This document shows, piece after piece, positions 2 through 17,214 of a stretch of DNA of 64,000 bases. The position numbers and the translations under genes were made by a program. Each line of letters opens with the position of its first letter. The stretch's first letter is position 1. The notes beneath the pieces are model-generated. The model had not been told where the DNA came from and did not search any database. It saw only the letters and a program-made list of their open reading frames with translations. Source of the stretch: a virus; IMG/VR virus record IMGVR_UViG_3300042880_000288, positions 32,001-96,000 of that record; one strand, written 5' to 3'.

Positions 2-2995
2 ATGGAGACTGTAAAAGATATTATCAATAGAGAGATCTTAAGGTTCCAAGATGGTATAACTAAAACTAGCAACAATAGTAAGTATGTAATTGATGATGAT
101 TTATATACCCGTGTTACCACTGCTATTGAATCACTTAAGAAAGATGCATATAACTATAAGAATATCAATATAGTTTTAGCTGAGTTCAATAAAACAATCG
201 GCCAAGGAAAATCAGTTGATGACTTTATAGCAGCTCTTAAAACAAGATTACCTATAGGTACAGATGGTATGAGTAAGTATGTATATAAAGTACTTGCCAG
301 AAATTTAAAACAAGTTATTGAGCCAGAAGATCCTAAAGCTAAAAAATTATCTGCTGATGAACTAAAAAATTATTTAAAAGAACAGATCTCTGAACTTACA
401 TATGAAGAAAGTAGAATAGGAGGTAACTATTTAGATGCTGAAATAAGAAAATTCCTTGATGAAGGTGAAGCTCAGTTTGATGAAACTAAGATTGATAAAG
501 CTGCTTTTGATGCAATCTTTGGACCTAATTCAGTACTTGCTAAATTAAAAACTAGACAGGACAATGGTGAAATAAAAATCTATGCTAATAACATTAAGTT
601 ATTTGATAAAGATTCTAAAATTGCTGGAGAGATTGACTTATTAATAGTTGATAGAGAAGGTGCTGTGTCTATAGTAGATATTAAATCAGGTAATAAAGAT
701 AAGTGGTCTGGCTTTCATGATGCCGCTAATCCTTATTCTAAAAAGGAAACTTATTTATTACAACAAACAGCATATGCAAACATGTTTTATAACATGACCG
801 GCATTATGCCAAAAGTTTATTTATTACCTATTGAAATTGAATCAGATCCAAATGTTGACTTAGATGAAAAAACAGGTCTACCAATTGGAGGTAAAATACT
901 TACTGCAAAATATGCTACGTCTCCAGTACAGTTAGGTGAAAATTTAATTGTATTAGATCCTAATACTGCATATGGTGATGAAACAATTCAAGAAAAAGTT
1001 GATACATTGATTCCAAGAAAAGAATTTGTTCCTGCTGAACCTGCTACAACTCCATTACAAGAAGTAAGTGATGAAGAATTTCAAGATTTTGTTGATAATA
1101 GAAATGTATCACAAAGTAGACTAGATGATATCACCTATAAAATATCTAGAGGTATTGAACTTACAGAGAGAGAATTAGCAATCAGTCAAGAATTTGTAGC
1201 TGATATAAACTTTAAACTAATTCAATTAGCACAACAAGAACAAGAGAATCAAGTGGGTGATGATGCTGAATCTGCTACAGGAAAAGCTGTCTTAGATGAA
1301 GTAAGTAAAGCTCTTACTGAATCTGAAAAAGAAACCAGACAAAGAAACATTGATATATTAAATAGAAGAATAAGTATTCTAGAAAGTAGAGCTCTTGAAA
1401 ATGACAAAAGTTTAGGAGAACTTCAAGATACTCTTGGTTTTTTACAAAATATGTTAGACTCATCTGTTGAAATAGCTGGTCTTGAATTTGAAGCATTAAT
1501 GAATAGTGCTAATAGTTTGTATGAGTTAGCTAATAAATTAAAATCTGCTAAACAAGTAAAAAGGGGAGAAAAGATTAAAGCCAGAGCTGGTCAGTATGAA
1601 AAGGAAACTAAAGAGAAAGCACGTAAAATTACATTTAAAGAAGCTCAGTTTATTTTAAATACTGTTAGAAAAGTACAAGATGAAATAAGACAACTTGAAG
1701 AGATTAAAAAAGATTTGACTAATCAGATTAATTATTACAATAATCTAAAAACTGATCCATCAATGAGACTTATTAATAAGTCTGAGATTAATCAAAAGAT
1801 TGTTAAGGTTAAACGTAAGATATCTACAATTGAAAAATTAATAAATATCTTAAGAAATGCAATTAGAAAATCATTAGAATATCTTCAAGAGTATTTAAAA
1901 ATCTTTAATAAATATAATACTAAACTTGATAGATTCAGAAAAGATACCGGTTTCCAAGAATTATCAGCTGATGAAATTAGAGCATTGATTGATTCTTTAG
2001 ATCCAAATGATGTATCTACACTAGATAGATATCCTCAACTTAAAAAACAATTTGACACTCTTGTAGATAAAGTTAATAAATCCATGGATGATGTTGAGTT
2101 TACTGATGAAGTCATTCAAGTTGAAAGAGATAGATTAGAAGAATTAGTTGCTGCCCATAAAAAGTATAATGATCAATTAAGATACTTGCAAGAGTTATTA
2201 GAACCAGTTGCTGCTGATGCATTTTATGAAAGTCCTTTGTCTGATAAAAATGCACCTGATGCACCTAAACCAAAAACAGGTGGTACTCCTGCTCAACAAA
2301 GAATTCAAACTAGAATTGAAGAAACTAATAAAGAAATCCAAGATGCTAAAGATGATATGGGTGACACTGTAGGATCATTTAGTCTTAGTGATATAGAAGA
2401 AGCCCCTAGTGGACAACCTGCTGTTAAAACTGAAGGATTTAAAACTCTTTCAGATATGGTAGAAGCTGCTAATGATCTTATTGAATTAAATAAGATCTAT
2501 GATGTAATTACTGACTATACTTTAACAGTAGATGAGTTAGATCAACTATCAGATCTTATTGATCAGAGAACTGAAGCATTACAAACTAATACAGCAACTA
2601 TTACATATAATGAAAATAATATTTCAAAAGGTGATAGATTTATCGTAAAAAATGCTATATTTATTAATAAGGAAATTTTTGCAGAACCAGGAAATTCACT
2701 CTTTATAGAATCTGTTAATGAAAATGGAGTTACAGTATATAAAGTGTTGGGAGGTGAAACAGAAAATCTTACCTTTGAAGAATTAACTAATAATACAACT
2801 CTTGATAACATGTCAAACATCCCACAAGAAGAACCAGTAGTTCTATCTACAGAAGATAAAAATGTAATTAAATCTTCATTAGATGCAGCTAATTCAATTA
2901 CTACAGATGACTTAGATGCAGTTAAAGATTCAATTAAAAATAAATCAATGGATGATTTAGAGAATGATTTATTAGAAACTAATGTTTGTGAATAA
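2..2995 (+). CDS. Giant virion cargo/ejection protein 1 (C-terminal part, probably 5'-truncated by the window) with PD-(D/E)XK nuclease-like domain and long coiled coil
   Basis: 997-aa ORF open at the window edge; GEIDLLIVD...IVDIKSG...QQTAYANM matches PD-(D/E)XK motifs II/III plus the QxxxY helix; heptad-rich middle; stop overlaps the next start (TAATG). Confidence 0.75.
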   Translation: METVKDIINREILRFQDGITKTSNNSKYVIDDDLYTRVTTAIESLKKDAYNYKNINIVLAEFNKTIGQGKSVDDFIAALKTRLPIGTDGMSKYVYKVLARNLKQVIEPEDPKAKKLSADELKNYLKEQISELTYEESRIGGNYLDAEIRKFLDEGEAQFDETKIDKAAFDAIFGPNSVLAKLKTRQDNGEIKIYANNIKLFDKDSKIAGEIDLLIVDREGAVSIVDIKSGNKDKWSGFHDAANPYSKKETYLLQQTAYANMFYNMTGIMPKVYLLPIEIESDPNVDLDEKTGLPIGGKILTAKYATSPVQLGENLIVLDPNTAYGDETIQEKVDTLIPRKEFVPAEPATTPLQEVSDEEFQDFVDNRNVSQSRLDDITYKISRGIELTERELAISQEFVADINFKLIQLAQQEQENQVGDDAESATGKAVLDEVSKALTESEKETRQRNIDILNRRISILESRALENDKSLGELQDTLGFLQNMLDSSVEIAGLEFEALMNSANSLYELANKLKSAKQVKRGEKIKARAGQYEKETKEKARKITFKEAQFILNTVRKVQDEIRQLEEIKKDLTNQINYYNNLKTDPSMRLINKSEINQKIVKVKRKISTIEKLINILRNAIRKSLEYLQEYLKIFNKYNTKLDRFRKDTGFQELSADEIRALIDSLDPNDVSTLDRYPQLKKQFDTLVDKVNKSMDDVEFTDEVIQVERDRLEELVAAHKKYNDQLRYLQELLEPVAADAFYESPLSDKNAPDAPKPKTGGTPAQQRIQTRIEETNKEIQDAKDDMGDTVGSFSLSDIEEAPSGQPAVKTEGFKTLSDMVEAANDLIELNKIYDVITDYTLTVDELDQLSDLIDQRTEALQTNTATITYNENNISKGDRFIVKNAIFINKEIFAEPGNSLFIESVNENGVTVYKVLGGETENLTFEELTNNTTLDNMSNIPQEEPVVLSTEDKNVIKSSLDAANSITTDDLDAVKDSIKNKSMDDLENDLLETNVCE

Positions 2996-5900
2996 TGAAA
3001 ATTACTTGTGCTCTTAGTAAAGAACATTTACTAAAACTTGCTGCTGTTATATATAAAGATATTGAATCATACCAAGCAGAGAATAAAGCCTATGATGCCA
3101 GAGTTTTAATGAATCAGTTATATGATAAATTAAATAAAGCACAAGGTCAAGAAGTTGCCTTATCTTATATGCAACAGATGCCATTTTTAGTTGGTCAAAT
3201 TGCTTTTAAAGAAAGCACTGAGCTCATTGAAGATTTTGCTATTAATGATCTATTTAAGTTAAATAAAGAATTCAGAAATGAAGATTCTGGAGTTCAATCT
3301 TTATTAAATTTTTTTGGTAAGACAATTGATGCATCTACTCTAAAACTACTTGCAGATGCAGAGTTAAATAATCCTGTTGAGAATGATGGGCCACCAATTG
3401 CTGAAGAACCTCCAATAGAAAAATTTACTGATAAGAGATTAAAAGTTTTAGTTGACAATGCTATATCAACTACCTGGGAAGAGTTTTTAGAAATGGATCC
3501 TAATTTAAAAGTTGATGAAACAATAGAGAATGTAGATCCTGCTAAAACTACTGTATATAATACACTAGATAGACTTAGAAAGTTAACTTCTGGTGGAACT
3601 GCCTTAGATACTATAGTAATGGATGATAACAAGGTTAAACTTAGAGTTTGGTCTCTTAATGCATTTCCTCAAGACTTACTATATCAAAAGACAAAAGATC
3701 TTAAACAAAGAATAAATACATTTCAATCTGGTAAAGCTAAAGATCAAGGTGAAGTAAAACCGGTTACTGAACAATTCATGGTTGTTCTTACAAATGAAAA
3801 AGGTCAGATACTTTATTTTAATGAAGCAGGTGTTGTTACTCCTAAAGAAAATGGAGGTAAACCTGTTTATCAAATGCTAAGAGATGTTAGATTAGAGAAA
3901 GGTGGTGAGTATAGAGTTACAGATATATATGGTAGAGAGGATATGATCCTTGGTTCTGCTCAAACTGCTCAAGCAAGAGTAAAACAAATGGGTTATAAAT
4001 CCATTGATATGTTTGAAAAATCTGAAGGTGTTAAGTTCTCAGATTTTGTAAATCAAATTGAAGAAGAAAGACAAGCAAAGTTTAAAGAGTATTATGATTT
4101 TAGACAGTCCTTAATTGGAATGCCAGCTAATAGACAAATATTTTTACCACTTGTTGATGTAAGTAATGGTGTTAGAAATGGTAGAGTTAGACCAGGAACT
4201 ATGAACATCAATAACTTAAGATCCTTTACTCCTGAACAAGCTGAAGCTATACTACAATCAATTACATTATTAGATACTGATTATATTACTGAAGATAGAA
4301 CACTTAAAGCTAATACATCAGCTGTTCAAATTAATGGAGAAGTATTTGAAGTTGACAGACCAGATATATCAACTGATCTGGCTACAAAAATAGCTAAGGT
4401 GCTTACTTCTAAAGATCTAAGTATTACAAGTAAGTTGGACTTTGTTCAACAGTTTTTAGATAACGCATTAGATGAAGATGTTAGAAGACATTTTATAAAG
4501 TATGATGCTGACCAAAAAAAATTAAGATTTTTATATAGAACATATATAAATGCTCAGTTTAAAGAAATTAAAAAAACAAATCCAAAAGCTGCAAATACAT
4601 GGTTGGAAGTTGATTTAACTGGAGGCCCTGCAGCTGAAGCAAAAATTATTGAAGTTCTTTTGAAAGGTAAAGGAACTTTAAAAAAAGAGAATAATAAAAT
4701 TGTATTGGATAAGAACGGTATTCCTGAAGTGGGAAGATATTATCCAGCTAAAATTAAATACGATAAAGGTTTACTGCAAGACGGTACTTATTTTGATTAT
4801 ATAGAAGATCCAAATAAACCTGGAGAATATATGTTCAGTGTAGGTTCCTATAAAACAGGATTACTTCCAACAATGGATGCTAAAATTGTATTAGGAAAAT
4901 CTAAATCAATTCCTTTGTTTAATAGCTACATGATTTTTGCAATTCCAAATGCATTTTCAGAATCTATTGATCAAATTAAAGATGAGAATGAAATAAAAGG
5001 AGAGCCTTCAGAAATACGTAAGAAGTATAATGAGTTAGTAGATATATTAAAAAATTCTCCTGATCAAAATCCAAGTTTAAAAGCAACAGTTACTGAATTA
5101 GGAAAGATAACACAGACACCTACAGGTAATTATAGAAGTATTGATATTACAATTGAAGGTCAAGAAGGAACTTTTAGATTGTATAGAGTTGTAGATACTA
5201 GTGCTAAAGTTGGAGATGAGATAAGTTTAATACTTAGAGATATTGAAGTACAAGATGGTATGGGATATCCTAATACTATTGTAGGTGTAAGAGATTTTGA
5301 AGGTAGAAGATATGACTTTGGATTCTTACAAGACTCATTCCGTAGTAAAGAATATAATGAACCATCAAGACAACCTGTACCATTAAATACTGAAGCAATA
5401 GAGGAAGCTAAAGAAGAAGAAGAACTTGATGATATAACAGATACACAATCTGAAGTAGGTGAGAGTAAAGATATTCCAATAACTCCTATTGAACCTGGTA
5501 AAGGTAGTATAGGTAGAATACTTGATGAGGATCCGGGGTTTGTTCTTGATAGAAAAACATGGCTGAGTCAATCAGGAATTACTCAAGAGCAATTAAATAA
5601 TGCAAAAGATTGGTGGGAGAATTCATCTTCTGGTAAGCTTTTAAATAAATACATTGAACTCAGTGTAGCAGCAGATTTAGTTAACTCTGATGTATATGCA
5701 AAATTTATTGCTAAAGGAGCATGGCTTTTAGGTTATGCTGATTACAAATTACAGCCAGGTAAACTTGGAGTTATTGCTTTAAATCCCCGTAATGGTGGGA
5801 ACTATGTAGATGTTTATCATGAAGCTTGGCACGTATTTTCTCAGTTATTCATGACTAATGAACAAAGAGTTAAATTATATACAGAGTTTAGAAATTCAGA

Positions 5901-8900
5901 TCCTGCATACAAGGATATGTCCTTCTTTGAAATAGAAGAAAGACTAGCAGAAAACTTTAGAGAGTATGCAAGAAATCCTAAACCTGTTAAAAGTCAACCT
6001 GTTAGAAATACATTATTTAGAAAAATATTAAACTTCCTAAAACAATTATTCGGTAAGGTATCTCCAAAAGATATCATTGATCCAAATATAATGGAAATAG
6101 GAATGGTTAATGAATTGTTTGAAGCTCTTTATTTCAATAATGATAATGTATTAAATAAATTTTCTCCATCCGTAGATAATTTAAAATGGGATGAACTTGA
6201 TAGAGGAGTGGTTGTAAAAACAGAAGAAAAGAATTCTAAGGGTAAAAATATAAAAGTTGAAGTACTGAATGAACAAGATGGTAGAGCTCTTGCAAATACC
6301 ATTGATTCTGTACTATCTGAAATCATTGATGAAAGTTCTAAATTTTATAATAAAAAATCAGGAACTGTAAAAATCTTAACTGATTCCTATAATAAAGGTC
6401 TTGCTTATGATAAGGTTAGAAAGAAGTTCATAGAAGATATTAAACAATGGCAAAAAGAACTTCTTATTAAAGATGCTAAGTTTGATACCTATACCACTTT
6501 AGATCAATTAGATTCAAATGCCTTTGCTGTAATAAGAAGTAAAAAAGGTGATCATAAATATATTTTCTTAAGAGGTCAAGTTGAAAGTTTTAAAAATCTA
6601 ACAGCTGATACTAAACTTGGAGAAAGAGAGAAAGGAAAACTATACAAAGACAATATTGAAATTGTAGCAGATTACTTTGAACATGATTTAATTAAAGATA
6701 GAAAAGGAAGAGGAGCAAGTATAATAATTGTTGATAGTAGACAAGAAGCTGAAGATCAATTTAAAAATTATATTGAAATTGATCCTATTACTAACGAACA
6801 AAAGGCACCTTCAATACAATCAATTAAATTTAATGAAGATAGAGTTGCTGCAAGATTATTTACTCCAGAGCAACAACTTAAATTAGATAACATTAGAATC
6901 TATGAAACAGCACTTAAACACTGGGATTCTATTATTGCTCATCATGAAAATAACTCAACCTTTGATATAATTAAACAAAAATATATCTTACTTGAAGAAG
7001 ACCCAAGTACAAACTCATCATTAGATACTACAAGAGCTAATGAAACTAGGACTGGGGATAAACAAATTGGAGAGTTTACATTACAGGAAATGGCTAATAA
7101 AGAGACTGTATATATATTAAAAAGTCTCTTTAAGAAAGAAAAGAAAGGAACTGGTTATGTTAATGTATATGATAGATTTGGTAATAAACAATTAGCTGAT
7201 TTTAGAACAGTATGGAATGCCGTTGTAAGAGCCACCAATAGTGCAAAAGATCCTCAAAAAATATATGATGCACTTGTAAATGCTGCCAAGTTTTCTCCAG
7301 AACTACAACAGTTAATAGATTATAAGTTGCCTTTACCAAATCAAGTAAATCAATCTTCTTCTGAGTTTGATATTACTACTTCATTCTTTACTGATTTTAG
7401 TAGACCAAAAGTACCATATATTCAATTGTTAGCTTTTGATGATGGTGTAGAATTCTCAACTGAAGTAACAGATGCTGGTATAGATGTAAGTAAAACTTTA
7501 AAGATATTTGAGGCTAAGTTCCGGTCAGATAAAAATGATTCATACATTGAAAAAGATAATAATATATCCAGACTTAATTTAAATGCTGTATTGCAAAATT
7601 TTAGAAATAAAAATAGTGCAAATTTAATTCTTGATGAAGATAAAGCATTTAAGTTTCTTACATCCATTGGATTCTATTTTGATGATCTTACTGCTATTAA
7701 AGATGAATTAAAAGATTTCAATAATAGAAAGTATTATTATATACCAAGAATATTTGAAACAATCAAATTAGTACATGAAGCTAGTTTAGATCCTAACTTA
7801 TCTAAAGAAGGAAGAGAATTAATAAATAAGTTTAGAATGAGTCCATTGAGGGTATTAAGAAGTGGTATACCTGAAAATGTATTGGGTCAGAAAGATTCTT
7901 CTTTATACAAAAATGGGCTTTCACAAAAGACTATTGTTGATAGACTGCTTACATTACAAAGTAAATACGGTAAAACCGGATCTAATTTTAGTGTATTAAA
8001 TCCTGAAAGAAACAGAGTTAATTTACATACTGATGATAACACAGCAACAGTAATAGCTGATGCAATAAATCAAGTAAGTAATAAATCTGATATGTGGACA
8101 AAAACACAGTATAGATTATTAAATTCATTTAACCCTGCAGTTAATGCATTTACTAACAGGTCCCAAATAATGAAAGCTTTATTTGAGCCAAGTAATAAAA
8201 GAAGAACTGACAGATTTTTAGAAATTATTATGGTGGCTGGTACACAGCTTACATTAAATGATGTATTTTTATCAGGAACATCAACTACAAGTTTAGATGG
8301 CCAGGGTAAATTCTTACAAGATTTTCATACATTTCTTAAGTCAGGTTATTTAGAGTTTTTAAGACCAGGTTCTAAATCCTCTTCATTTGGATTCATCTTA
8401 CGTGGAGGTTTCCCTATTGATGTAAAAGGTATGGGTAAGAATAAAGAACAACATCTATATGCAGATATAGATGACTTCCTTACTGCAAACAATAAAGAGA
8501 CTGAAGTAATTGAAAGAATTATCCTACCATATCTTGCAGGTGAACTTGAAAGAATAAATAAATTCAAAGAAAACCCAAAAGCAAAAAATTATATAGGGTA
8601 TAATCAAAAAGTCACTGACTCAGGTAAGAGAGCTGGAGAAGAGTATGCAATATTTGAAGGTATACTTGATGATAAAACTAAATCAGACTTATTAGAAAAA
8701 ATAAACAACTCTGGTATAGATTTAATAAACTATCTTAAAAATGATCCTGATTTAAAATCTAGTTTGATTAAACAAATCAAAGGTTATTTTACTACTAGAA
8801 GTACTGATGTTTATAACAGATTAAATGAAGGTAAATATGTAGATCCTAAACTATATAATAAAGTACCTGGTGATTTGACTAAGTCAGAAAAAGAAAAAGT

Positions 8901-11900
8901 TCTTGCAAAGACTTTCATGTATAATTATTGGATTCATAGTGTTGAGACTCAGATATTATTCTTAGGTGACATATCTCAATATAATCATCTTAAAGAAGAA
9001 TTACATAAGAGAACTTCTGGTTTGATTTCAAATGGTCCAAGATTTAGGACTGATACTGCTGCTCAATTATTTATAAATAATAAAGCTTTATGGGCAAAAA
9101 GTACTTATGCATCTACTTTACCTGCTGAGTATCAAAACTTTGAATACAATGGTACATTTAATACCGCCATCATGGAGGATATTACTAGAGATAGTGAATA
9201 CTTAGATATAATTAAAAAAGGTCTTGAAAAAGATTATGCAAAAAGATATGCTTTACTTCCAACAGCAGAAGCTAAAAAACTTATAGAAGAAAGAGTAGCA
9301 AAAGAAATTGCTAAATATACGGCAGATGAAATCAAAGAAGGTGATGGTCAAGGTTATATTACTGTTGATGCATATAGAACATTAAAAAAATTACAAAACC
9401 GTTGGTCAGATCAGCAAGAAGTTCTATATCAAAAAGTAATTAAAGGAAGTGAGATTACACCAGCAGAATATATTGAACTTTTTCCTCCATATAAATTACA
9501 ATACTTTGGTCCATTAGTAGCACAAACAAAAGATTTTGCTAATGGTACAGTTTTACCAGTTACAGCTTTCCATAAGTTTGCCTTGGTACCTTTAATTCCA
9601 TCATGGGTAAAGGGTTCTGATCTTGAAGTATTGCATAAAGAAATGCTAAGGAATAACATTCAATATGCAACATTTGGTAGTGGATCTAAGGTAGGTGCAG
9701 TAACATCTGATGGTGAATTAGATAAAATTTATGAGCCCGGTTCAGATAATAAAAAATTAAAAAGTAAAATAAACTTTACTAAAAATACTATTAATGTTGA
9801 GTACTTAAAAGAAGTAACCAGTGTACCTAGTAAATTAAAAGGTAAAGTTATATTCTCAACTCAGTTAAGAAAATTAATTCTTGAAGGATTATTTATTAAA
9901 GGAGAACTTGTAAATGGTGCTAACAAAGATATAGTAGAAGGATACACTTCATTGGTTGACTCTTATACTAAATTATTAAAAGAAGAATTATTAACTGAAA
10001 TTGGTTATACAAAAGAGAATGGAGTATATGTTGGTAAGCCTGCTAAATTATTAAAATTAATCAAAGACAATTTAGCTAAAAAAGATTACCCAAGTCACCT
10101 TCTTGATGCATTAAAAACAAATCCTGATGGTTCACTTAAGTATGACTTATCAAATTTTATTGATGCTCAAACTATAGAAAGAACTGTATTATCAATTGCT
10201 GAAAATAGATTTGTTAAACAAAAACTAAAAGGAGAAGCTTTAGTTCAAGTAGCAAGTTCCATGACAAATGGTTTATGGACTGCAGGAAATAAATTTAAAG
10301 CAGGATCTAAGGAAGATGTATTAAAGTATATGGGTACTAATAATCTACCTTTCTATTATCCTGGTGAGGATGGTAAAACAAATGCAATGAAAGTTGCTAT
10401 TGCTTTACAAGGAGACTTCTTCAATTTATTAAACTTAAATGACTTAGATGGTCAACCAATTAAGACAAGAGAAAGACTTAATGAACTGATCAAACAAGAT
10501 GAATGGTTAAATAAAGATAACAACCGTAAAGCTATTACCATGACTGCTGTTAGGATTCCTGTACAAGGACTTAACTCTATGGAGTTTATGGAAGTTTGGG
10601 AGTTCTTGGATCCTTCTGCAAGTAATATTATTATTCCTCCTACAGAACTAGTAGCAAAATCAGGGGGTGATTATGACGTTGATAAGCTTACTACATTCAT
10701 GCCTAACATAGATAAAGATGGTAATGTTTATACTTCAGATAAAAATGCAAAAGCTTTACTTGATTCTATTAATGAAGCAGACAGTAAAGATAAAATGGCC
10801 TTAATCAAGCAAGCTAAAAAAGTAATGGAAAATGACTTGATCACTAGTATCAGATCTATTCTTGAATTACCAGAAAATTATGCAACTCTTGTAAGACCAA
10901 ATGATACTTACATGCTTAAAGATATTGCTGATGAATTAGCTGATGTTGTAGTTGATTATGATAAATTCCAAACAGTAAATAGAAAATTCAAAGAATATAG
11001 AATTGTAAAAGGTAAAAAAGCAATTAGTCCTACTACTACATTAGAACCTTTATATAATATTGATAAGTTTAATGGTAACATGATTGGTAAAGCAGTACTT
11101 GGTATTGGTGCCAATGAGAATGCTTTTAGTCCTTTATTAAATTCTATTGGTGCTAAAATGCCATTGACTTATCAGGAAAGTGAATTTGATCCAAAAATCA
11201 ATAAGTATAAAGATATAAAGGATGGTGAAACTTATAGAACAAGATTACTATTACGTCATAATAAAAATGCTGATGGTACAATTTCATTAGCAGATGTAAA
11301 CTCTGTTGATGCTGTAAATAAAATAGCTGACTTGTTTTCACAAGGTATGAATGGATGGGTTGACGTTGAAAAAGATCAGTGGATCTTTTATATTCAAGGT
11401 AACTTAGAAATATCTCCTGTATTACTGTATTTATTAAAAGCTGGTGTACCTGTGAGAGATGCTGTTATGTTTGTGTCTACTCCTCTTATTAGAGAGTATG
11501 CAAATAAACAAAGACTATTGAAAAGTCCATATGCAACTCTAATGGGTATTGCACCTACTGAACCTCAGTTTGCTCAATATAATGCAGCTAATGAAGTATT
11601 AAGTCCTGCTATAGATGCTTACTTGAAAAGAACTATTGATAAAGCTGTATTCTCAGGTTATAGTTTTGATACTGCATCAATAGCTTACTATGGTTTAGGT
11701 CCTAATGGTAGAAAACAATTAATGACTCAAGAGTTCAAAGGAACTGATGATCAAGTGATTAAAGATCAAATTAATGACTTCTTACAATATGTTGATTCAA
11801 ATGATGTCATGAGAATCAATTTTTATCAGCAAGCAGATAGAAGACAAAATAATAAAGTATACAGTAAACCAAGAGTTTCAAATAAAGAAATTTACAATTC

Positions 11901-14900
11901 AGCTGTACAATTAAGTGATAATAATTTAGATAGCTTTGGTAATTTTGATAAAGCTAAAATTGAACAATTAGTTAAGTCTAAAAATGATACTGATAAATAT
12001 TCTGATTTTTCAATGGCTGCATTCTTGCATTTTATTGAGATTGAAAAATATTTAAAGGGTCTAGGTAATGTAAAAAGATTATCTAAACCAGATACTCAAA
12101 CATTTAAAACTATACAAGAGGTTTTATTAAGAGATCTAAATATTGCATACTTAAATGATTACAGTAAAGTTGATAAAACTACTTTTGATAGATTAAGAAA
12201 TGACAGCATTCTTGCTGCTCTTGCAGATAAAGATATAATAACTCAAGTAATAAGTCCATTGTTTTCATTAAGAAATAGCAAGCAAGTATTAGATCAGATT
12301 GTTTCTACTATCAATACTAAAACAGAAGCTCTCAAAGAAAGATATGGTGGTCTTGGAGCAGACAACATTAGTAGGTTTATTGAAGAGTATAAAAATGCCA
12401 TCAATACATTTATACTACAAAACTTCTTAAGTAACAATATAAACTCTAATGGAGAGATTGTTTTAGTGCCGGATACTTACAAAGGTTTTGAAGTTGTTAC
12501 TAATGAAAATCTTGAAACAGATGTTGAAGTAACTGAGAAGGATGGTAAGAAACTTATTAGAGTTAATCCAAAAAGAATTGAAGCTGACTTTAAAAATAAA
12601 AACTACTTAGTAACCAGTAGCTCTAACAACTCTTACAAGTCAAGAGGCCTTGAAGCATTCCAAGTTGGTGATGATGTATTTGAATCTAAGTCAAGTTACT
12701 ATAGATATGTTATAGAAAGAGAGTATTTAAAAAATAAAGGATTTACTAAAGAAGAACTTAACAGTATTGCTTTATTGAATACTTATAATCCATCTGTAAT
12801 ATTGAGAAGAGGTACATATTCTTTTACAGATCAGTTATTAGAATCTATTCAACAGTTTCCAGAACTTTCTAAATATCCTGTAGTAAACCAATTAAGTTTA
12901 TATGCTTTTTCTAATGAATTTAATGTATTAACTTTAAATGATAAAGGTTTACTTGATGGTGCTCAAGCTGATATATATGCTCAGAATATTAGAGAACTAG
13001 CTAATCCAAAAATCCAAAAGATTGCAAACACTAAGGATAATGAAAAAATAAGTAGATTATTTTACATGCTTCAATTAATGGCAACTTACCAACATGGTTC
13101 AGGTCCTTCAATTGATGGCTTTAATGAAATACTACCTCAAGATTCATACTTAAGTGTTATGAATAATGCTAGTCCTTTATTCACTAAATACTATTTTAAT
13201 GAAGATACTCTTGAATATATTGTTGATGTTCTTACAGCAGATAAATTAAGAATTAAGAACTATACAAGCATGCCAACAAGTAATAATACATTTGTTATTG
13301 AGGCTAAAGCTGAAGGTGCTCAACCATCTATTAAACCAACAACTCCTACTTTAACTGTAAATGATCCTAAAGATTTTACAAATCATTCGGGTGGTGCTGC
13401 TTTATCTGATACTGAATGGGATCAAATAGGTAGAGAGTTTGGGGTAACTAATCATAAACATTATAGAGAGCCTTTAGATTATGTAGATACAAAAGGTGAA
13501 GCTGCTAAAGGAAGTAAAACATTAGATTCTAAAAAATTACAAGCAGCTGGTATTGAACCTACTCATATTAGTCAAAAAGACTATAATGAAGGTGCACAAA
13601 AAGCTACAAAAGCTTTTAGAATGATGTATACTGATTCTGAAAATAAATCAGTAAGAAGTGCCTATATTATTCGTAACTGGTTACAAGTTAAAAATGCTGA
13701 TGCCATATTTGCATTAGGTACTATAAAACAACCTGGTGAAAATGCATCTGATAAAGCTGGTGAAACAAGAATAGCTGCTGTCCCTATTGTTAAAGGTGGT
13801 ACAGGATATGCTGTTCAAATGGCTATTAATGAAGGTAAACCTGTTTATGTATTTGATGGTACTAAAGAAGGATGGTATAAGTATGATTATTCAATTAAAA
13901 ATTTTGTAAAAACTGATACACCAACTCTTACTAAAAACTTTGCAGGTATAGGAAGTAGAACACTAAGTACAAAAGAAGTAATAGACAAATCATTACAAGC
14001 CATCAGAGATGTATATACTCAAACATTTGGGGCTAAACAAAAATCAGATGGTACAACAGTTAAATACAAGTACTATGGTGCTATGTATGATATTGTTGTA
14101 GAGAATGGACTTGGTATAGATGTATTAAACTATAAAGGGAAACCGGCTAAAAAAGCAATTTTATTAGCTTACTTTAATCAAAATCCAAATATAGATCCTC
14201 AAAGTACTGGACCTGATCCAATAGTTTTAAGTGATGAAGAAATAAATAATGATGATACAGGTAACTCAGATCCAACAACAGGTAATACATTTACTTTTGC
14301 TGATGGTTATGAGATTGAAACTCCTTTTAAATTAAACAAAGAACAAGAGGCAGCTCTGTTAAAACTTGAAGAATTCTATAATGATCCTAAAAAATTCAAT
14401 AATGAAATTACATTGATTGGATATGCAGGAACTGGTAAAACTTCAATCATGGCTCTCTTTGATAAATGGTTGAATAAAGGATGGTTTGGACCTAATATAG
14501 TATATACTGCACCAACTCATAGAGCAAATGCTGTTACTAAACTTAAGAATCCTAAAATTAAAGTATTAACTCTCCATTCCTTATTTGGATTTGGTCCTGA
14601 AGTAGACTTTGAAGGAATGGATTATGACGTAAGAGATTTACAATTTGCTAATAATAGAAATGGAAAAATTGATAAAGGTCAAATACTTATTGTAGATGAA
14701 TCTTCTATGATTACTGATGAATTATATGATTTCTTAGGTCAGCAAAAAGATAAGTATGATCTTAAAGTTATATACATGGGTGATCCAGGACAGTTAGGTC
14801 CTGTGCAAAATAAAGGAGGCTTGACATCAAAAGTATTTTCTAATCCCACATCTAGTATTACTTTAACTAAAGTAGAAAGAACAGGAGATAATCCTATACT

Positions 14901-17214
14901 AAAAGAATCAACTGCACTAAGATCTGGAGGTTCTTTATCATATCAGTCTGCAGAAATTAATGGAAAAGGTGTTGAATATATAAATAGTACAGCTAGAGAA
15001 AATCAAATACTTGCTGAAAATCTTAATGAAATGAGAGACTCAGAAAACTATTTGTATTTTAGAATGTTAGCTGCAACAAATCCTGAAGTAGCTAGATTAA
15101 ATAAAGTAGCGAGAGAAATATTATATCCTCAAACCTATCAAGAACAATTAGTAGTTGGTGAAATTCTTATGGGGTATGATAATTTTGGTAGAGATTATAA
15201 AACAGGCCAGTCTTTATTATATAACTCTGGAGATTATATGATTACTCAACTTAAGAAAGATAATAAAGAAGTCTATATAACTAATTATGAAAAACAAGGA
15301 GACAAATTTGTAAATATCGGTTTTGAAGAATTGAATTTTACTGGATACAATGTAACTCTTAAAAATCTATTGGATCCAGAAGCAAAACCATTTGAAGTCT
15401 TTATACCAGATATTGTAGGTAATGATGATGCATCTACTAAACTTGCAGATTCTATTCATAAGTTAAACTATATGGGTAAGATTGCTGGTTATGGACAAGA
15501 TAAAGCTAAATATTTTGAAGCAGCTTCTAATTTATCTAAACAAGTATTATTTATGAATGACGTAAAAGGTTTAACTGATAAGTCTAAAATTAAAAAAGCA
15601 ATAGACTATGGTTATGCTCATACAATTCATAAATCTCAAGGTGGTACTTATACTAAAGTATTTATAAATGATCCTAGTATAACAGGATTAGTAGGATATA
15701 TTAAAGATAGAAGAAGACTTACCGATGATCAAGCACAAACTGTTGAAAGACAATTAAAGTATGTTGCTGTATCAAGAGCTACTGACTATGTATATATTTC
15801 AACTAATAGAAGTGCTGCAGGAAAACCTACTAGTTTTGATGATCCGGCCTCTGGAGATTTTGATACTGTAGGAACATTTAATATCAATGATTTAAATCCA
15901 CCATCTAATCCACCAATATCAGGAGAAAGAAAACCTATTGAACCAATAAATGCTCAAGAAATTGAAGATGGTTTAATCTTACAAAAAGGTGTTCTTACTA
16001 AAGAAGAACAAAAACAATTCTTTCAATTTGGTAAAACAGTTCTAGAAAAGAATGGTTATAATCCTTTTGCACAATATGTTATGGCCTCTGCTGGTAAAAT
16101 GGAATGGAGTCCTGAATTTGTAGTTGATAAAAATGGAAAAGGTGTAGATAGACCAGGAAATTATAATACTGGAATCATTCAAATTAAGAAAAACCTAGGA
16201 GGAAGAGACAGTAAAGAAAAAAGATGGAATTATAATTACTACCTCACTAATTTTGATGGTACTACTATAGCTCCAATACCAAATAATATTATAAGTATAC
16301 TAGAAAAAGTTACAGGTCAAGATATGTCTGACTATGATACAGTTCTAATTAACTTATATCCATTAGGTAGAACACTTGGTTGGCATCAAGATATAACTGA
16401 AGATTATAGAAACATGGATAGAGATATTATATCTGTATCTATTGGAGCAGATGCTGATTTTACTTACAATAAAAGAGATAAATTAAGTTATGCTCCTGCA
16501 GCAGATAGTATTCCTGATGGTGTTGTTAATTTAAAGAGTGGGGATGTTATGAGTTTTGGTGGTAAATCTAGACTTGTTCAACATACTGTAACTAATGTAA
16601 CAGGTCAGACAGATTTAGGAACCATAAATCTTGCTAACTCTAATGTAAATAAATATTTTAATGGTGGTTTAAATTTATCTAACTGGAGAATGAACTTTAC
16701 ATTTAGAGTAGCTGATTCTAAAAATAATAATGGTAAAAGAGGATTAGTTTCTACAGTAATTCCAGGTATTAAAAAGTTTGAAGGACAAATGACCTATGCT
16801 TATGGTCAAAATAAAAGAGCTGGTGTAATAGCTAATACAACATTTGATGCCATATTAACGGGTGAAAGAACAGCTACTACAAGATATGAAACTTCAGATA
16901 ATATTGAATACTGGAAAAAAGCCAAAGTTGGAGATATTATTACATGGAAATCTGATGATGGCCGTACTGTAGATGTAGAAGTAACAAGACCACTACATAA
17001 ATTAGTGGGGTCAGGTAAAACACCAACTGATTGGAGCCAACTTGAAGGCTGGTCAATATCTTATTTTAATGAAAAGGTTAGACCTAAACTTGATAAAGCT
17101 TGGCAAATTGAGTTTAAATTACCTGCACCGCCTGCTGCTGAAACAGAAATTAATGATAACTTTATTGATCCTTTTGAAGATGATCAAGAAAATAATTGTG
17201 CATATCCTTTTTAA
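2995..17214 (+). CDS. Giant virion-packaged DNA-dependent RNA polymerase polyprotein (crAss-like two-barrel RNAP) with zincin motif, cpYpsA-like SLOG, RecD/Dda-like SF1B helicase, AlkB 2OG-Fe(II) dioxygenase and ASCH-like domains
   Basis: HEAWH (5818-5832); EGDGQGY, GSKVG, RIPVQG and GGDYDVDKL (DxDxD at 10669-10683); NHSGGA...GGTGYAVQMA..GKPVYVFD...FAGIGSR; GYAGTGKT, DESSM, GDPGQL, HKSQG, YVAVSRA; INLY..LGWHQD...SVSIG...HTV...RMNFTFR; FDAILTGERTATTR. Confidence 0.88.
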   Translation: MKITCALSKEHLLKLAAVIYKDIESYQAENKAYDARVLMNQLYDKLNKAQGQEVALSYMQQMPFLVGQIAFKESTELIEDFAINDLFKLNKEFRNEDSGVQSLLNFFGKTIDASTLKLLADAELNNPVENDGPPIAEEPPIEKFTDKRLKVLVDNAISTTWEEFLEMDPNLKVDETIENVDPAKTTVYNTLDRLRKLTSGGTALDTIVMDDNKVKLRVWSLNAFPQDLLYQKTKDLKQRINTFQSGKAKDQGEVKPVTEQFMVVLTNEKGQILYFNEAGVVTPKENGGKPVYQMLRDVRLEKGGEYRVTDIYGREDMILGSAQTAQARVKQMGYKSIDMFEKSEGVKFSDFVNQIEEERQAKFKEYYDFRQSLIGMPANRQIFLPLVDVSNGVRNGRVRPGTMNINNLRSFTPEQAEAILQSITLLDTDYITEDRTLKANTSAVQINGEVFEVDRPDISTDLATKIAKVLTSKDLSITSKLDFVQQFLDNALDEDVRRHFIKYDADQKKLRFLYRTYINAQFKEIKKTNPKAANTWLEVDLTGGPAAEAKIIEVLLKGKGTLKKENNKIVLDKNGIPEVGRYYPAKIKYDKGLLQDGTYFDYIEDPNKPGEYMFSVGSYKTGLLPTMDAKIVLGKSKSIPLFNSYMIFAIPNAFSESIDQIKDENEIKGEPSEIRKKYNELVDILKNSPDQNPSLKATVTELGKITQTPTGNYRSIDITIEGQEGTFRLYRVVDTSAKVGDEISLILRDIEVQDGMGYPNTIVGVRDFEGRRYDFGFLQDSFRSKEYNEPSRQPVPLNTEAIEEAKEEEELDDITDTQSEVGESKDIPITPIEPGKGSIGRILDEDPGFVLDRKTWLSQSGITQEQLNNAKDWWENSSSGKLLNKYIELSVAADLVNSDVYAKFIAKGAWLLGYADYKLQPGKLGVIALNPRNGGNYVDVYHEAWHVFSQLFMTNEQRVKLYTEFRNSDPAYKDMSFFEIEERLAENFREYARNPKPVKSQPVRNTLFRKILNFLKQLFGKVSPKDIIDPNIMEIGMVNELFEALYFNNDNVLNKFSPSVDNLKWDELDRGVVVKTEEKNSKGKNIKVEVLNEQDGRALANTIDSVLSEIIDESSKFYNKKSGTVKILTDSYNKGLAYDKVRKKFIEDIKQWQKELLIKDAKFDTYTTLDQLDSNAFAVIRSKKGDHKYIFLRGQVESFKNLTADTKLGEREKGKLYKDNIEIVADYFEHDLIKDRKGRGASIIIVDSRQEAEDQFKNYIEIDPITNEQKAPSIQSIKFNEDRVAARLFTPEQQLKLDNIRIYETALKHWDSIIAHHENNSTFDIIKQKYILLEEDPSTNSSLDTTRANETRTGDKQIGEFTLQEMANKETVYILKSLFKKEKKGTGYVNVYDRFGNKQLADFRTVWNAVVRATNSAKDPQKIYDALVNAAKFSPELQQLIDYKLPLPNQVNQSSSEFDITTSFFTDFSRPKVPYIQLLAFDDGVEFSTEVTDAGIDVSKTLKIFEAKFRSDKNDSYIEKDNNISRLNLNAVLQNFRNKNSANLILDEDKAFKFLTSIGFYFDDLTAIKDELKDFNNRKYYYIPRIFETIKLVHEASLDPNLSKEGRELINKFRMSPLRVLRSGIPENVLGQKDSSLYKNGLSQKTIVDRLLTLQSKYGKTGSNFSVLNPERNRVNLHTDDNTATVIADAINQVSNKSDMWTKTQYRLLNSFNPAVNAFTNRSQIMKALFEPSNKRRTDRFLEIIMVAGTQLTLNDVFLSGTSTTSLDGQGKFLQDFHTFLKSGYLEFLRPGSKSSSFGFILRGGFPIDVKGMGKNKEQHLYADIDDFLTANNKETEVIERIILPYLAGELERINKFKENPKAKNYIGYNQKVTDSGKRAGEEYAIFEGILDDKTKSDLLEKINNSGIDLINYLKNDPDLKSSLIKQIKGYFTTRSTDVYNRLNEGKYVDPKLYNKVPGDLTKSEKEKVLAKTFMYNYWIHSVETQILFLGDISQYNHLKEELHKRTSGLISNGPRFRTDTAAQLFINNKALWAKSTYASTLPAEYQNFEYNGTFNTAIMEDITRDSEYLDIIKKGLEKDYAKRYALLPTAEAKKLIEERVAKEIAKYTADEIKEGDGQGYITVDAYRTLKKLQNRWSDQQEVLYQKVIKGSEITPAEYIELFPPYKLQYFGPLVAQTKDFANGTVLPVTAFHKFALVPLIPSWVKGSDLEVLHKEMLRNNIQYATFGSGSKVGAVTSDGELDKIYEPGSDNKKLKSKINFTKNTINVEYLKEVTSVPSKLKGKVIFSTQLRKLILEGLFIKGELVNGANKDIVEGYTSLVDSYTKLLKEELLTEIGYTKENGVYVGKPAKLLKLIKDNLAKKDYPSHLLDALKTNPDGSLKYDLSNFIDAQTIERTVLSIAENRFVKQKLKGEALVQVASSMTNGLWTAGNKFKAGSKEDVLKYMGTNNLPFYYPGEDGKTNAMKVAIALQGDFFNLLNLNDLDGQPIKTRERLNELIKQDEWLNKDNNRKAITMTAVRIPVQGLNSMEFMEVWEFLDPSASNIIIPPTELVAKSGGDYDVDKLTTFMPNIDKDGNVYTSDKNAKALLDSINEADSKDKMALIKQAKKVMENDLITSIRSILELPENYATLVRPNDTYMLKDIADELADVVVDYDKFQTVNRKFKEYRIVKGKKAISPTTTLEPLYNIDKFNGNMIGKAVLGIGANENAFSPLLNSIGAKMPLTYQESEFDPKINKYKDIKDGETYRTRLLLRHNKNADGTISLADVNSVDAVNKIADLFSQGMNGWVDVEKDQWIFYIQGNLEISPVLLYLLKAGVPVRDAVMFVSTPLIREYANKQRLLKSPYATLMGIAPTEPQFAQYNAANEVLSPAIDAYLKRTIDKAVFSGYSFDTASIAYYGLGPNGRKQLMTQEFKGTDDQVIKDQINDFLQYVDSNDVMRINFYQQADRRQNNKVYSKPRVSNKEIYNSAVQLSDNNLDSFGNFDKAKIEQLVKSKNDTDKYSDFSMAAFLHFIEIEKYLKGLGNVKRLSKPDTQTFKTIQEVLLRDLNIAYLNDYSKVDKTTFDRLRNDSILAALADKDIITQVISPLFSLRNSKQVLDQIVSTINTKTEALKERYGGLGADNISRFIEEYKNAINTFILQNFLSNNINSNGEIVLVPDTYKGFEVVTNENLETDVEVTEKDGKKLIRVNPKRIEADFKNKNYLVTSSSNNSYKSRGLEAFQVGDDVFESKSSYYRYVIEREYLKNKGFTKEELNSIALLNTYNPSVILRRGTYSFTDQLLESIQQFPELSKYPVVNQLSLYAFSNEFNVLTLNDKGLLDGAQADIYAQNIRELANPKIQKIANTKDNEKISRLFYMLQLMATYQHGSGPSIDGFNEILPQDSYLSVMNNASPLFTKYYFNEDTLEYIVDVLTADKLRIKNYTSMPTSNNTFVIEAKAEGAQPSIKPTTPTLTVNDPKDFTNHSGGAALSDTEWDQIGREFGVTNHKHYREPLDYVDTKGEAAKGSKTLDSKKLQAAGIEPTHISQKDYNEGAQKATKAFRMMYTDSENKSVRSAYIIRNWLQVKNADAIFALGTIKQPGENASDKAGETRIAAVPIVKGGTGYAVQMAINEGKPVYVFDGTKEGWYKYDYSIKNFVKTDTPTLTKNFAGIGSRTLSTKEVIDKSLQAIRDVYTQTFGAKQKSDGTTVKYKYYGAMYDIVVENGLGIDVLNYKGKPAKKAILLAYFNQNPNIDPQSTGPDPIVLSDEEINNDDTGNSDPTTGNTFTFADGYEIETPFKLNKEQEAALLKLEEFYNDPKKFNNEITLIGYAGTGKTSIMALFDKWLNKGWFGPNIVYTAPTHRANAVTKLKNPKIKVLTLHSLFGFGPEVDFEGMDYDVRDLQFANNRNGKIDKGQILIVDESSMITDELYDFLGQQKDKYDLKVIYMGDPGQLGPVQNKGGLTSKVFSNPTSSITLTKVERTGDNPILKESTALRSGGSLSYQSAEINGKGVEYINSTARENQILAENLNEMRDSENYLYFRMLAATNPEVARLNKVAREILYPQTYQEQLVVGEILMGYDNFGRDYKTGQSLLYNSGDYMITQLKKDNKEVYITNYEKQGDKFVNIGFEELNFTGYNVTLKNLLDPEAKPFEVFIPDIVGNDDASTKLADSIHKLNYMGKIAGYGQDKAKYFEAASNLSKQVLFMNDVKGLTDKSKIKKAIDYGYAHTIHKSQGGTYTKVFINDPSITGLVGYIKDRRRLTDDQAQTVERQLKYVAVSRATDYVYISTNRSAAGKPTSFDDPASGDFDTVGTFNINDLNPPSNPPISGERKPIEPINAQEIEDGLILQKGVLTKEEQKQFFQFGKTVLEKNGYNPFAQYVMASAGKMEWSPEFVVDKNGKGVDRPGNYNTGIIQIKKNLGGRDSKEKRWNYNYYLTNFDGTTIAPIPNNIISILEKVTGQDMSDYDTVLINLYPLGRTLGWHQDITEDYRNMDRDIISVSIGADADFTYNKRDKLSYAPAADSIPDGVVNLKSGDVMSFGGKSRLVQHTVTNVTGQTDLGTINLANSNVNKYFNGGLNLSNWRMNFTFRVADSKNNNGKRGLVSTVIPGIKKFEGQMTYAYGQNKRAGVIANTTFDAILTGERTATTRYETSDNIEYWKKAKVGDIITWKSDDGRTVDVEVTRPLHKLVGSGKTPTDWSQLEGWSISYFNEKVRPKLDKAWQIEFKLPAPPAAETEINDNFIDPFEDDQENNCAYPF

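Follow-up and report, generated by a model that had tools for sequence, protein, structure and literature searches.

The DNA examined here raises the question of how a single phage protein of 4,739 amino acids (aa) is composed, how unusual this composition is and what its long C-terminal tail could contribute to infection. Its source belongs to the crAss-like phages, which are the dominant viruses of the human gut and are often found in water. A sequence-only reading of the locus had described the protein as a crAss-type RNA polymerase joined to a zincin motif and to four accessory enzyme domains, had called this combination unusual and had proposed that an early anti-defence and repair kit is delivered together with the polymerase. 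Here, domain content, genomic context, relatives and exchange of the tail modules were analysed, and the proposed role was weighed against other explanations.

Organization of the locus

The window, i.e. the whole stretch of 64,000 nucleotides (nt) that was analysed, originates from an uncultured 120-kb crAss-like phage. The protein is encoded by one stop-free open reading frame (ORF) of 4,739 codons, the start of which overlaps the stop codon of the upstream gene (TAATG), and it is flanked by two further giant ORFs:

2..2995, plus strand: upstream giant protein at the position of gp67, C-terminal 997 aa of 2,447 aa, with a PD-(D/E)XK-like domain inside
2995..17214, plus strand: the whole 4,739-aa ORF, encoding a putative virion RNA polymerase of the crAss type that ends in an array of enzyme domains
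17224..23028, plus strand: downstream giant protein of 1,934 aa at the position of gp65, containing an HExxH motif (aa 189) and a LysM domain (aa 1620-1662)

Virion structural genes are followed by the co-directional ORFs of 2,447, 4,739 and 1,934 aa and then by a divergent replication block. Three giants close the structural block, and the polymerase gene lies between the other two, as in the gp67-gp66-gp65 arrangement of phage phi14:2. The orthology of the neighbours to gp67 and gp65 is putative and is based on position and on the placement of HExxH; in BLASTP comparisons neither gp67 against the N-terminal 1,799 aa nor gp65 against the downstream 1,934-aa ORF gave significant similarity. 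Since a scan for promoters and terminators inside the ORF yielded nothing exceeding shuffled expectation, there is no sign of a separately expressed tail.

Giant ORFs from metagenome assemblies are suspect in general, and a fusion of separate genes by an assembly or sequencing artefact was therefore considered, although nothing specific at this locus speaks for it. Such an artefact is extremely improbable: the ORF runs stop-free over 14.2 kb at 30% G+C, polymerase core and cassettes are likewise fused in a single frame in more than 100 independent contigs, and four reference genomes show such a fusion as well.

The polymerase core

Two nested segments were delimited, the first from colinearity with relatives whose tails differ and the second from BLASTP, profile search and DxDxD conservation:

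2995..13314, plus strand: clade-conserved core, aa 1-3440
8917..11514, plus strand: RNA polymerase core homologous to gp66, aa ~1975-2840

The giant proteins L004 and L005, for example, can be aligned over aa 1-3450 and diverge thereafter. The diagnostic motifs are located at aa 2117 (DGQGY, nt 9343-9357), at aa 2519-2522 ((V)RIP, with RIP at nt 10552-10560) and at aa 2559 (the catalytic DYDVD, nt 10669-10683). BLASTP against phi14:2 gp66 placed DYDVDK opposite DFDIDK and RIPVQG opposite RIPNQG, and the core profile had 6VR4_A as its sole match (E 2.2e-50), in four colinear stretches including the catalytic motif; 6VR4 was found by the clade profile alone and was missed when the whole protein was compared with the PDB by phmmer. 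The DxDxD motif is kept in 120/120 homologues examined. At the level of the aligned catalytic region, the proposed assignment to the gp66 family of crAss-type virion RNA polymerases is confirmed. The two double-psi beta-barrels expected around DYDVD are predicted from the homology to the solved two-barrel structure 6VR4, with which the catalytic motif is aligned.

The phi14:2 protein gp66 is reported to be carried in the virion and to transcribe early genes, and the templates it accepts are single-stranded or denatured DNA, whereas native duplex DNA is not transcribed; its structural relative QDE-1 requires the helicase QDE-3 (preprint 10.1101/2020.03.07.982082). By analogy, the 4,739-aa protein would be present in the virion and would transcribe early genes.

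The HExxH module and the terminal cysteine

Two further elements lie upstream of the polymerase core and at the very end of the protein, respectively:

5542..6354, plus strand: putative zincin-like module, aa ~850-1120, with HEAWH at aa 942-946 (nt 5818-5832)
17131..17214, plus strand: acidic C-terminal tail and stop codon, with Cys4735 at nt 17197-17199

The HEAWH motif noticed earlier is present and conserved, HExxH being kept in 98/99 aligned homologues, and it is followed about 35 aa further on by an EExLAExF motif; in alignment A3 no variation is seen at H, E and H or in the downstream EE..AE.F. The HExxH segment had no match in Pfam, NCBIfam or the PDB sequences, and its look-alikes found with a protein language model are clusters of polyvalent proteins (LPD1, LPD23, ART-PolyVal).

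The protein contains two cysteines, one of which is Cys4735. A cysteine within the last 10 residues was found in 121/121 giant homologues, regardless of tail content, and likewise in gp66; the array therefore lies inside the unit that is used by gp66-type proteins.

The four cassettes of the C-terminal tail

The tail downstream of the clade-conserved core comprises four cassettes, and for all domains the coordinates given by the sequence-only reading agree with the present ones within about 50 nt:

13321..14079, plus strand: cpYpsA-type SLOG cassette, aa 3443-3695, with the motifs HSGGA (aa 3464) and GGTG (aa 3601)
14272..15927, plus strand: SF1B helicase cassette of the Dda/RecD-like type, aa 3760-4311, from Pfam, PHROG and motifs
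15937..16773, plus strand: AlkB-type Fe(II)/2OG dioxygenase cassette, aa 4315-4593, from PF13532 and motifs
16768..17130, plus strand: YqfB-like ASCH cassette, aa 4592-4712, from GERTATTR at aa 4623 and a structure model

For the SLOG cassette, comparison of the segment with Pfam, NCBIfam and the PDB sequences gave no match, and the assignment made earlier was borne out by structure prediction. The AlphaFold model (pLDDT 92.6) matched 3IMK_A with a Z of 11.7 (148 residues aligned, rmsd 3.6), followed in the ranking by DprA (6.5), MCP (5.9) and YpsA (5.8) and also by LOG-type chains, and the Foldseek probability was 0.98. According to this model, the segment adopts a Rossmann-like SLOG fold, contains nucleotide-binding loops rich in glycine and is nearest to the cpYpsA prototype 3IMK; HSGGA and GGTG hardly vary within the family. 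With PF12694, the Pfam model for the cpYpsA clade, just 3/64 family members get to an E of 0.0065, and this SLOG-fold family is outside Pfam coverage. Stretches of P0071 and P0068 that match PF12694 were tried as a bridge to this SLOG and were rejected, as they have no BLAST similarity to it. The same SLOG family is located inside non-homologous N4-type virion polymerases, namely in Klebsiella phage Pylas gp65 (aa 984-1158, 38% identity, E 5e-32) and in Alteromonas phage PT15-A5. Viral YpsA-like SLOG domains, which are sporadically fused to SF1 helicases, have been predicted to act on host signals derived from ADP-ribose (PMC9503650).

The helicase cassette is intact, as had been claimed. Pfam AAA_30, AAA_19 and UvrD_C_2 cover aa 3780-4268 with scores exceeding their cut-offs (AAA_30 75.5 bits versus 27), PHROG 325 (Dda-like helicase) matches with 245 bits, and similarity to RecD2 and TraA helicases is evident. 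Walker A and B as well as motifs III, V and VI are all present (GTGKT at 3812, DESS at 3901, GDPGQLG at 3929, HKSQG at 4212 and VSRA at 4259).

The AlkB call is likewise well founded, PF13532 reaching 73.9 bits over aa 4399-4571 against a cut-off of 31.2, and the residues for binding of metal and 2OG are intact (HQD at 4464-4466, H4530 and RMNFTFR ending at 4571). The cassette is referred to as AlkB-like and not as an AlkB equivalog because the NCBIfam equivalog cut-offs were not reached. Enzymes of the AlkB family repair alkylated single-stranded DNA and RNA.

The ASCH-like domain scored under the Pfam cut-off (E 0.028, 15.6 bits versus 21.2), and an ASCH profile gave noise only against the PDB sequences. 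Its structure model, by contrast with these searches, matched Escherichia coli YqfB (9KYF) in Foldseek with E 1.7e-4, probability 1.0 and 26-28% identity, and further ASCH structures (1T62, 3S9X, 2Z0T) were matched as well; judged from the model, an ASCH beta-barrel fold is present. In YqfB, an N4-acylcytidine amidohydrolase, a Thr-Lys-Glu triad and an Arg oxyanion hole are formed by Lys21, Thr24, Arg26 and Glu74 (PMC6972931). The GERTATTR motif is nearly invariant, and its x-x-T-x-R arrangement, judged by motif spacing only, has Arg where Lys21 is expected. Because Arg appears to replace this essential base, an amidohydrolase activity of the YqfB type is uncertain.

Distribution among relatives and reference genomes

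At least 737 giant metagenomic proteins carry such tails, and among the best 120 of these at least 737 all but a few also contain the polymerase core. The metagenomic proteins P0002-P0006 and P0008 (4,756-4,915 aa) and P0007 (4,324 aa) have polymerase cores that are 64-74% identical to the one described here. P0002-P0006 and P0008 contain all four module types and likewise end in the NNC..PF tail, but their modules are ordered helicase, SLOG, AlkB and ASCH, whereas the order in the 4,739-aa protein is SLOG, helicase, AlkB and ASCH, and their SLOG modules are merely 28-41% identical to the one found here. In P0007 the helicase precedes a SLOG module of 89% identity, and AlkB and ASCH are absent. 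In some relatives these modules are combined with NADAR and ART-PolyVal domains.

The majority of the nearest polymerase relatives are without any of the four modules and, for this reason, none of the modules is essential to the polymerase. The majority also terminate in a common domain of ~170-220 aa which is absent from the 4,739-aa protein. Of the 145 nearest polymerase representatives whose C-termini were considered complete, 6 have tails of at least 1,000 aa, and one cluster has all four modules, in another order. Single-linkage clustering of the tails of the nearest relatives resulted in one component, and no module count was obtained from it.

Reference genomes of the Suoliviridae also have a single giant ORF with C-terminal add-ons at the position of the polymerase. 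The core of cr118_1 gp14 (4,946 aa) is alignable, with DFDIDKL opposite DYDVDKL at ~23% identity between the cores, and its SF1B helicase is 30% identical. A helicase is carried by cr50_1 gp059 (4,774 aa), a SLOG module by cr109_1 gp53 (4,328 aa) and ASCH-like modules by cr272_1 gp23 (6,386 aa) and cr114_1 gp021 (4,272 aa). Each of these reference proteins matched one module type and not four, and AlkB was matched in none of them. Their annotations ('DNA helicase', 'exonuclease V', 'DprA-like protein', 'hypothetical protein') are misleading. Giant polymerase genes of crAss-like phages are mostly annotated as 'hypothetical' or after one stray domain.

The proposal that the architecture is unusual thus has to be divided. 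Tails as such are widespread, as seen from the metagenomic proteins, the Suoliviridae references and P0002-P0006 with P0008, whereas a four-module tail of ~1,300 aa is rare among the nearest polymerase relatives, and the AlkB module had no match in 50,697 deposited phage records. Since swappable additions occur widely in this family of polymerases, the protein richly illustrates an established design and does not introduce a new one. In the literature text, no description of a helicase, AlkB, SLOG or ASCH on crAss-type polymerases was found; some may be shown in Fig. 3 of PMC7886860.

Exchange of the cassettes and proposed role of the tail

The boundaries of the cassettes are sharp, flexible linkers rich in Pro, Asp and Glu lie between them, and the nearest relatives have the modules in other orders. 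Helicase identity follows core identity (rho 0.64, in a sample that was picked by tail similarity, which may bias the result), and no such relation is seen for SLOG (rho -0.16). SLOG modules are at least 60% identical despite cores of less than 40% identity in 13 cases, and less than 45% identical despite cores of at least 50% identity in 9 cases. Modular shuffling of the cassettes is shown by these data, and the helicase appears to be co-inherited with the polymerase core. The cassettes are probably swapped between phages through recombination at the linker boundaries.

Taken together, the protein is probably best explained as a gp66-type polymerase with an N-terminal extension and a tail of four exchangeable cassettes that is delivered with the virion. 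The cassettes are predicted to be self-contained, have catalytically intact motifs and are closed by the short cysteine-bearing tail. The following steps of packaging and ejection, a possible cleavage and the roles of all four enzymes are inferred. As expected from gp66, the protein would be synthesized late, enter the capsid together with the giants encoded on either side and be ejected alongside the DNA, and the cassettes would thereby be inside the cell ahead of any phage gene expression. There, the helicase would most likely open duplex phage DNA or feed single strands to the polymerase with its preference for single-stranded DNA, SLOG may bind or degrade defence signals derived from nucleotides or ADP-ribose, and AlkB and ASCH may clear nascent RNA or exposed single-stranded DNA of alkyl or acyl groups. 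Co-delivery as an anti-defence or repair kit, as put forward in the sequence-only reading, may reasonably be inferred from the analogy to gp66 as a virion protein.

The same cassettes could also be a housekeeping kit for repair and support of transcription, with AlkB and ASCH mending chemical damage, either to early transcripts or suffered by the genome while outside the cell, and with helicase and SLOG serving the polymerase only. The Pfam and NCBIfam matches to AlkB, whose relatives act on alkylated single strands, the exposure and use of single strands by gp66 and the apparent co-inheritance of the helicase with the core fit this explanation. It is nevertheless unlikely, as SLOG and AlkB are patchy and rapidly exchanged in the manner typical of arms-race genes, NADAR and ART-PolyVal share the tail with these modules in relatives, and viral YpsA-like SLOG has been assigned to countering immune signals (PMC9503650).

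Alternatively, the tail may not be injected but be fused for co-expression only and be removed by cleavage, for which the HExxH module is a candidate, either ahead of packaging or in the course of it, so that the cassettes would act late in the producing cell, e.g. in repair of replicating or packaged DNA. The gene is located in the late structural block, a conserved HExxH module exists, the linkers between the cassettes are flexible, and cleavage of fused giant proteins has been proposed in the literature. This course of events is nonetheless improbable: the universally kept terminal cysteine follows the array and not the core, standalone copies would be enough for a late cytoplasmic role, and N4-type polymerases hold the same SLOG family internally, between their N-terminal and polymerase regions, which makes cleaving and discarding less plausible.

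Beyond virion delivery of an exchangeable tail, it is tentatively suggested that the stretch from the core to the terminal cysteine is a general delivery slot supplied from a common pool of cassettes for two unrelated types of virion polymerase (crAss two-barrel and N4 T7-like). The helicase would in this case not be cargo but a co-evolving covalent template opener, i.e. part of a helicase-coupled initiation machine like QDE-1 with QDE-3. The apparent co-inheritance of helicase and core suggests how a gp66-type enzyme, which transcribes single-stranded DNA in vitro, may start on a duplex genome. If the tail is ejected with the polymerase, a ready-made and exchangeable set of enzymes would enter the cell before gene expression, which would be a counter-defence route and a naturally occurring case of a phage delivering proteins.

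Comparison with known systems

The closest characterized system is phi14:2 gp66 (PDB 6VR4), with which the protein shares the homologous core, including aligned catalytic DxDxD, RIPxQG and trigger-loop regions, the block of three giant genes and the confinement of cysteines to the protein termini; a HExxH near the N-terminus is common to gp65 and the downstream 1,934-aa protein. In contrast, gp66 has 2,180 aa and no Pfam domain, whereas the 4,739-aa protein has ~1,100-1,900 added N-terminal residues with a second, separate conserved HExxH module and an additional four-enzyme tail of ~1,300 aa after the core, which ends near aa 3440.

With polyvalent proteins (PMC5512222) it shares the combination of many disparate enzymatic domains and a HExxH module in one polypeptide of the virion module: polymerase, SLOG, helicase, AlkB, ASCH and the HExxH module are encoded here by one ORF in the structural block. 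The whole words SLOG, ASCH, 2OG and SF1 as well as AlkB were not found in the text of PMC5512222. The N4-type virion RNA polymerases of Pylas and PT15-A5 likewise use a virion polymerase as carrier of the same SLOG family, but the carrier differs, the two-barrel crAss type being unrelated to the T7-like N4 enzyme. The phage SLOG-SF1 helicase fusions of PMC9503650, which have been interpreted as sensors or degraders of immune signals derived from ADP-ribose, are comparable, but here both domains are covalently part of a polymerase. Finally, whereas QDE-3 is a separate helicase beside QDE-1 in Neurospora, the helicase of the 4,739-aa protein is covalently joined to its polymerase.

Genomic setting of the giant gene

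The window (bases 32001-96000) was derived from a single 120,701-bp contig. The giant open reading frame comprises 4,739 codons with no interruption in DNA of about 30% G+C and is flanked on either side by another giant gene of the same orientation.

Giant genes of the trio (window coordinates unless marked)
2-2995: upstream giant gene, last 997 aa of a 2,447-aa protein (complete gene at 7652-14995 of upstream region L013, genome 27652-34995)
2995-17214, + strand: giant protein, 4,739 aa
17224-23028: downstream giant gene, 1,934 aa

Large virion-structural genes precede the trio, and a divergent replication block with genes for a DNA polymerase, a primase, a DnaB-like helicase and an exonuclease comes after it. 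The upstream stop codon and the start of the giant frame overlap in TAATG. A PD-(D/E)XK nuclease-like domain was observed at aa 1553-1686 of the upstream protein (Pfam PDDEXK_1, 23.3 bits, cut-off 22; weak match to PHROG 298). The downstream protein carries an HExxH motif at aa 189, placed similarly to that at aa 245 of gp65 from Cellulophaga phage phi14:2. Residues 1620-1662 form a LysM domain of the peptidoglycan-binding kind, and the two features together fit a role in envelope penetration.

Identification of the polymerase core

Using tblastn with the central part of the giant protein, only crAss-like phages were matched, among them phi14:2 with its virion RNA polymerase gp66. BLASTP against gp66 paired DYDVDK (aa 2559) with the catalytic DFDIDK, RIPVQG with RIPNQG, and aa 2776-2837 with the trigger-loop region. 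A profile built from the core of the giant protein, three relatives from viral contigs and crAss-like phage cr118_1 matched a single PDB entry, the gp66 structure 6VR4_A (E 2.2e-50), in four colinear stretches, and DxDxD was kept in 120/120 homologues examined. From this homology a two-barrel fold around DYDVD is predicted, so that the refuting condition of the sequence-only reading, lack of such a fold, was not triggered; every motif named there was found in its place.

Accessory domains

Homology to relatives ends sharply at the cassette boundaries.

Segments of the giant protein
Core: ends at about aa 3440
SLOG cassette: aa 3443-3695
Helicase cassette: aa 3760-4311
AlkB cassette: aa 4315-4593
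ASCH cassette: aa 4592-4712

All four domain calls held, those of the helicase and AlkB by Pfam and those of SLOG and ASCH by structural matches of models. The helicase is spanned by Pfam AAA_30, AAA_19 and UvrD_C_2 (aa 3780-4268), matches PHROG 325 (Dda-like helicase, 245 bits) and has the complete set of motifs I, II, III, V and VI. The AlkB cassette matches PF13532 (73.9 bits, cut-off 31.2) with both the HxD...H triad and the RxNxTFR motif, and it scores below the NCBIfam equivalog cut-offs; it is therefore AlkB-like, not an AlkB equivalog. As a query it gave no match among 50,697 deposited phage records.

For the SLOG segment, whose family consists of standalone proteins of about 190 aa and fused modules, the Pfam search gave no match. 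An AlphaFold model built on the family alignment (pLDDT 92.6) had as its top structural match the cpYpsA-family prototype 3IMK (Z 11.7; Foldseek probability 0.98), whereas DprA, Mo-cofactor carrier, YpsA, ShosA and LOG chains scored far lower (Z 4.5-6.5). The ASCH segment reached a Pfam E of 0.028 at best; its model (pLDDT 85.6) matched E. coli YqfB (probability 1.0, 26-28% identity) and then other ASCH structures. In its nearly invariant GERTATTR an Arg occupies the site at which, by spacing, the essential Lys21 of YqfB is expected, and YqfB-type chemistry of this cassette is therefore uncertain.

The proposed zincin motif, YHEA[WFY]H, is retained by 98/99 homologues, with an invariant EE..AE.F about 35 residues C-terminal of HExxH, a pattern that would be expected of a gluzincin. 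Pfam, NCBIfam and PDB sequences gave no recognition of this module, and its language-model look-alikes are clusters of polyvalent proteins. It is separate from the gp65-type HExxH, which in this phage lies in the downstream gene.

Exchange of cassettes and the retained C-terminus

Six metagenomic relatives (P0002-P0006 and P0008) have cores 64-72% identical to that of the giant protein and the order helicase, SLOG, AlkB, ASCH, but their SLOG is just 28-41% identical. In relative P0007 (core 74%; order helicase, SLOG) the SLOG is 89% identical with flanks of about 60%, and in proteins with merely 22-26% core identity SLOG identity reaches 73-85%. These comparisons show independent movement of the cassettes. 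In a sample chosen by tail similarity and not by core, helicase and core identities were correlated (Spearman 0.64, n=100) and SLOG and core identities were not (Spearman -0.16, n=56). Differences in rate alone cannot explain the non-monotonic SLOG pattern, which points to cassette exchange.

The giant protein has two cysteines only, Cys5 (nt 3007-3009) and Cys4735 (nt 17197-17199). In all three giants cysteines are confined to the termini, including Cys996 of the last 997 residues of the upstream protein (window 2984-2989) and Cys5 of the downstream protein (window 17236-17238), and gp67, gp66 and gp65 of phi14:2 share this pattern. Regardless of tail content, a Cys was present within the last 10 residues of 121/121 giant homologues; the array thus follows the core and precedes a terminal element that has been retained.

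Distribution of the architecture

When the tail was used as query among proteins of 2,606-8,294 aa, 737 significant matches were obtained, with precomputed Pfam sets that mix helicase, AlkB, NADAR, cpYpsA, ART-PolyVal and others. Among the best 120 of these 737, nearly all have the polymerase core, and the four module types are arranged in many orders. Reference Suoliviridae genomes likewise carry this theme under other names.

Giant proteins of reference genomes
cr118_1 gp14 (locus L001:4012-18852): 4,946 aa, named 'exonuclease V'; DFDIDKL aligned, C-terminal helicase
cr50_1 gp059 (locus L006:1302-15626): 4,774 aa, named 'DNA helicase'
cr109_1 gp53 (locus L009:1-9831): 4,328 aa, named 'DprA-like DNA recombination-mediator protein'
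cr272_1 gp23 and cr114_1 gp021: ASCH-like modules

RefSeq names several Suoliviridae giants at the polymerase position after one accessory domain, which hides the polymerase.

The core alone, a query unbiased as to the tail, retrieved 1,906 cluster representatives at E <= 1e-3. Among the 150 nearest, tail lengths refer to the 145 with an apparently complete C-terminus.

Tail beyond the core in 145 representatives
Under 200 aa: 28
200-500 aa: 80
500-1,000 aa: 31
At least 1,000 aa: 6

At least one of the giant protein's four module types is present in only about one quarter of the nearest-relative tails analysed, and the P0002 cluster alone carries the full set. A shared C-terminal domain of about 170-220 aa ends most of the nearest relatives (P0295, P0304-P0309, P0351 and about 60 others); it is absent from the giant protein and the P0002 group and may have filled the tail slot ancestrally. 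Two relatives (L004:4127-17344 and L005:4109-16339; 4,405 and 4,076 aa) extend 600-960 aa past the core with zero Pfam matches, and these extensions are further tail modules.

Taken together, the tail-selected, reference and core-selected samples indicate that such a design is widespread in the order and that, within its own clade, the giant protein has one of the richer tails. The description as unusual thus applies to the four-module tail among the nearest polymerase relatives, not to the design.

Proposed function and comparison with known systems

The virion protein gp66 transcribes early genes and is active on single-stranded or denatured DNA and barely on duplex, and its structural relative QDE-1 requires the helicase QDE-3 (preprint 10.1101/2020.03.07.982082). 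Viral YpsA-like SLOG domains, some fused to SF1 helicases, are predicted sensors or degraders of ADP-ribose-derived immune signals (PMC9503650). By analogy, the giant protein would be an ejected polymerase whose helicase most likely provides single-stranded template or handles incoming DNA, and the SLOG, AlkB and ASCH cassettes would be exchangeable enzymes that act early, countering nucleotide signals of the host or base modification. The main alternative is that the cassettes serve lesion repair instead of counter-defence. Packaging, ejection, any cleavage and cassette activity are inferred for this protein. The domain observation of the sequence-only reading was confirmed, and its interpretation was supported in part; co-delivery of an anti-defence or repair kit is a reasonable proposal by analogy with gp66.

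The same SLOG family occurs within virion polymerases of the N4 type, enzymes with no relationship to the crAss polymerase: in gp65 of Klebsiella phage Pylas (aa 984-1158, L007:9001-9525; 38% identity, E 5e-32) and in Alteromonas phage PT15-A5 (L008:9001-9321). In the searched text of the 2017 polyvalent-protein paper (PMC5512222), SLOG was not found among N4-polymerase fusion partners. Common to crAss and N4-type carriers is ejection with the DNA, reported or expected. The giant protein belongs to two known kinds, the giant virion polymerases of the crAss type and the polyvalent proteins.
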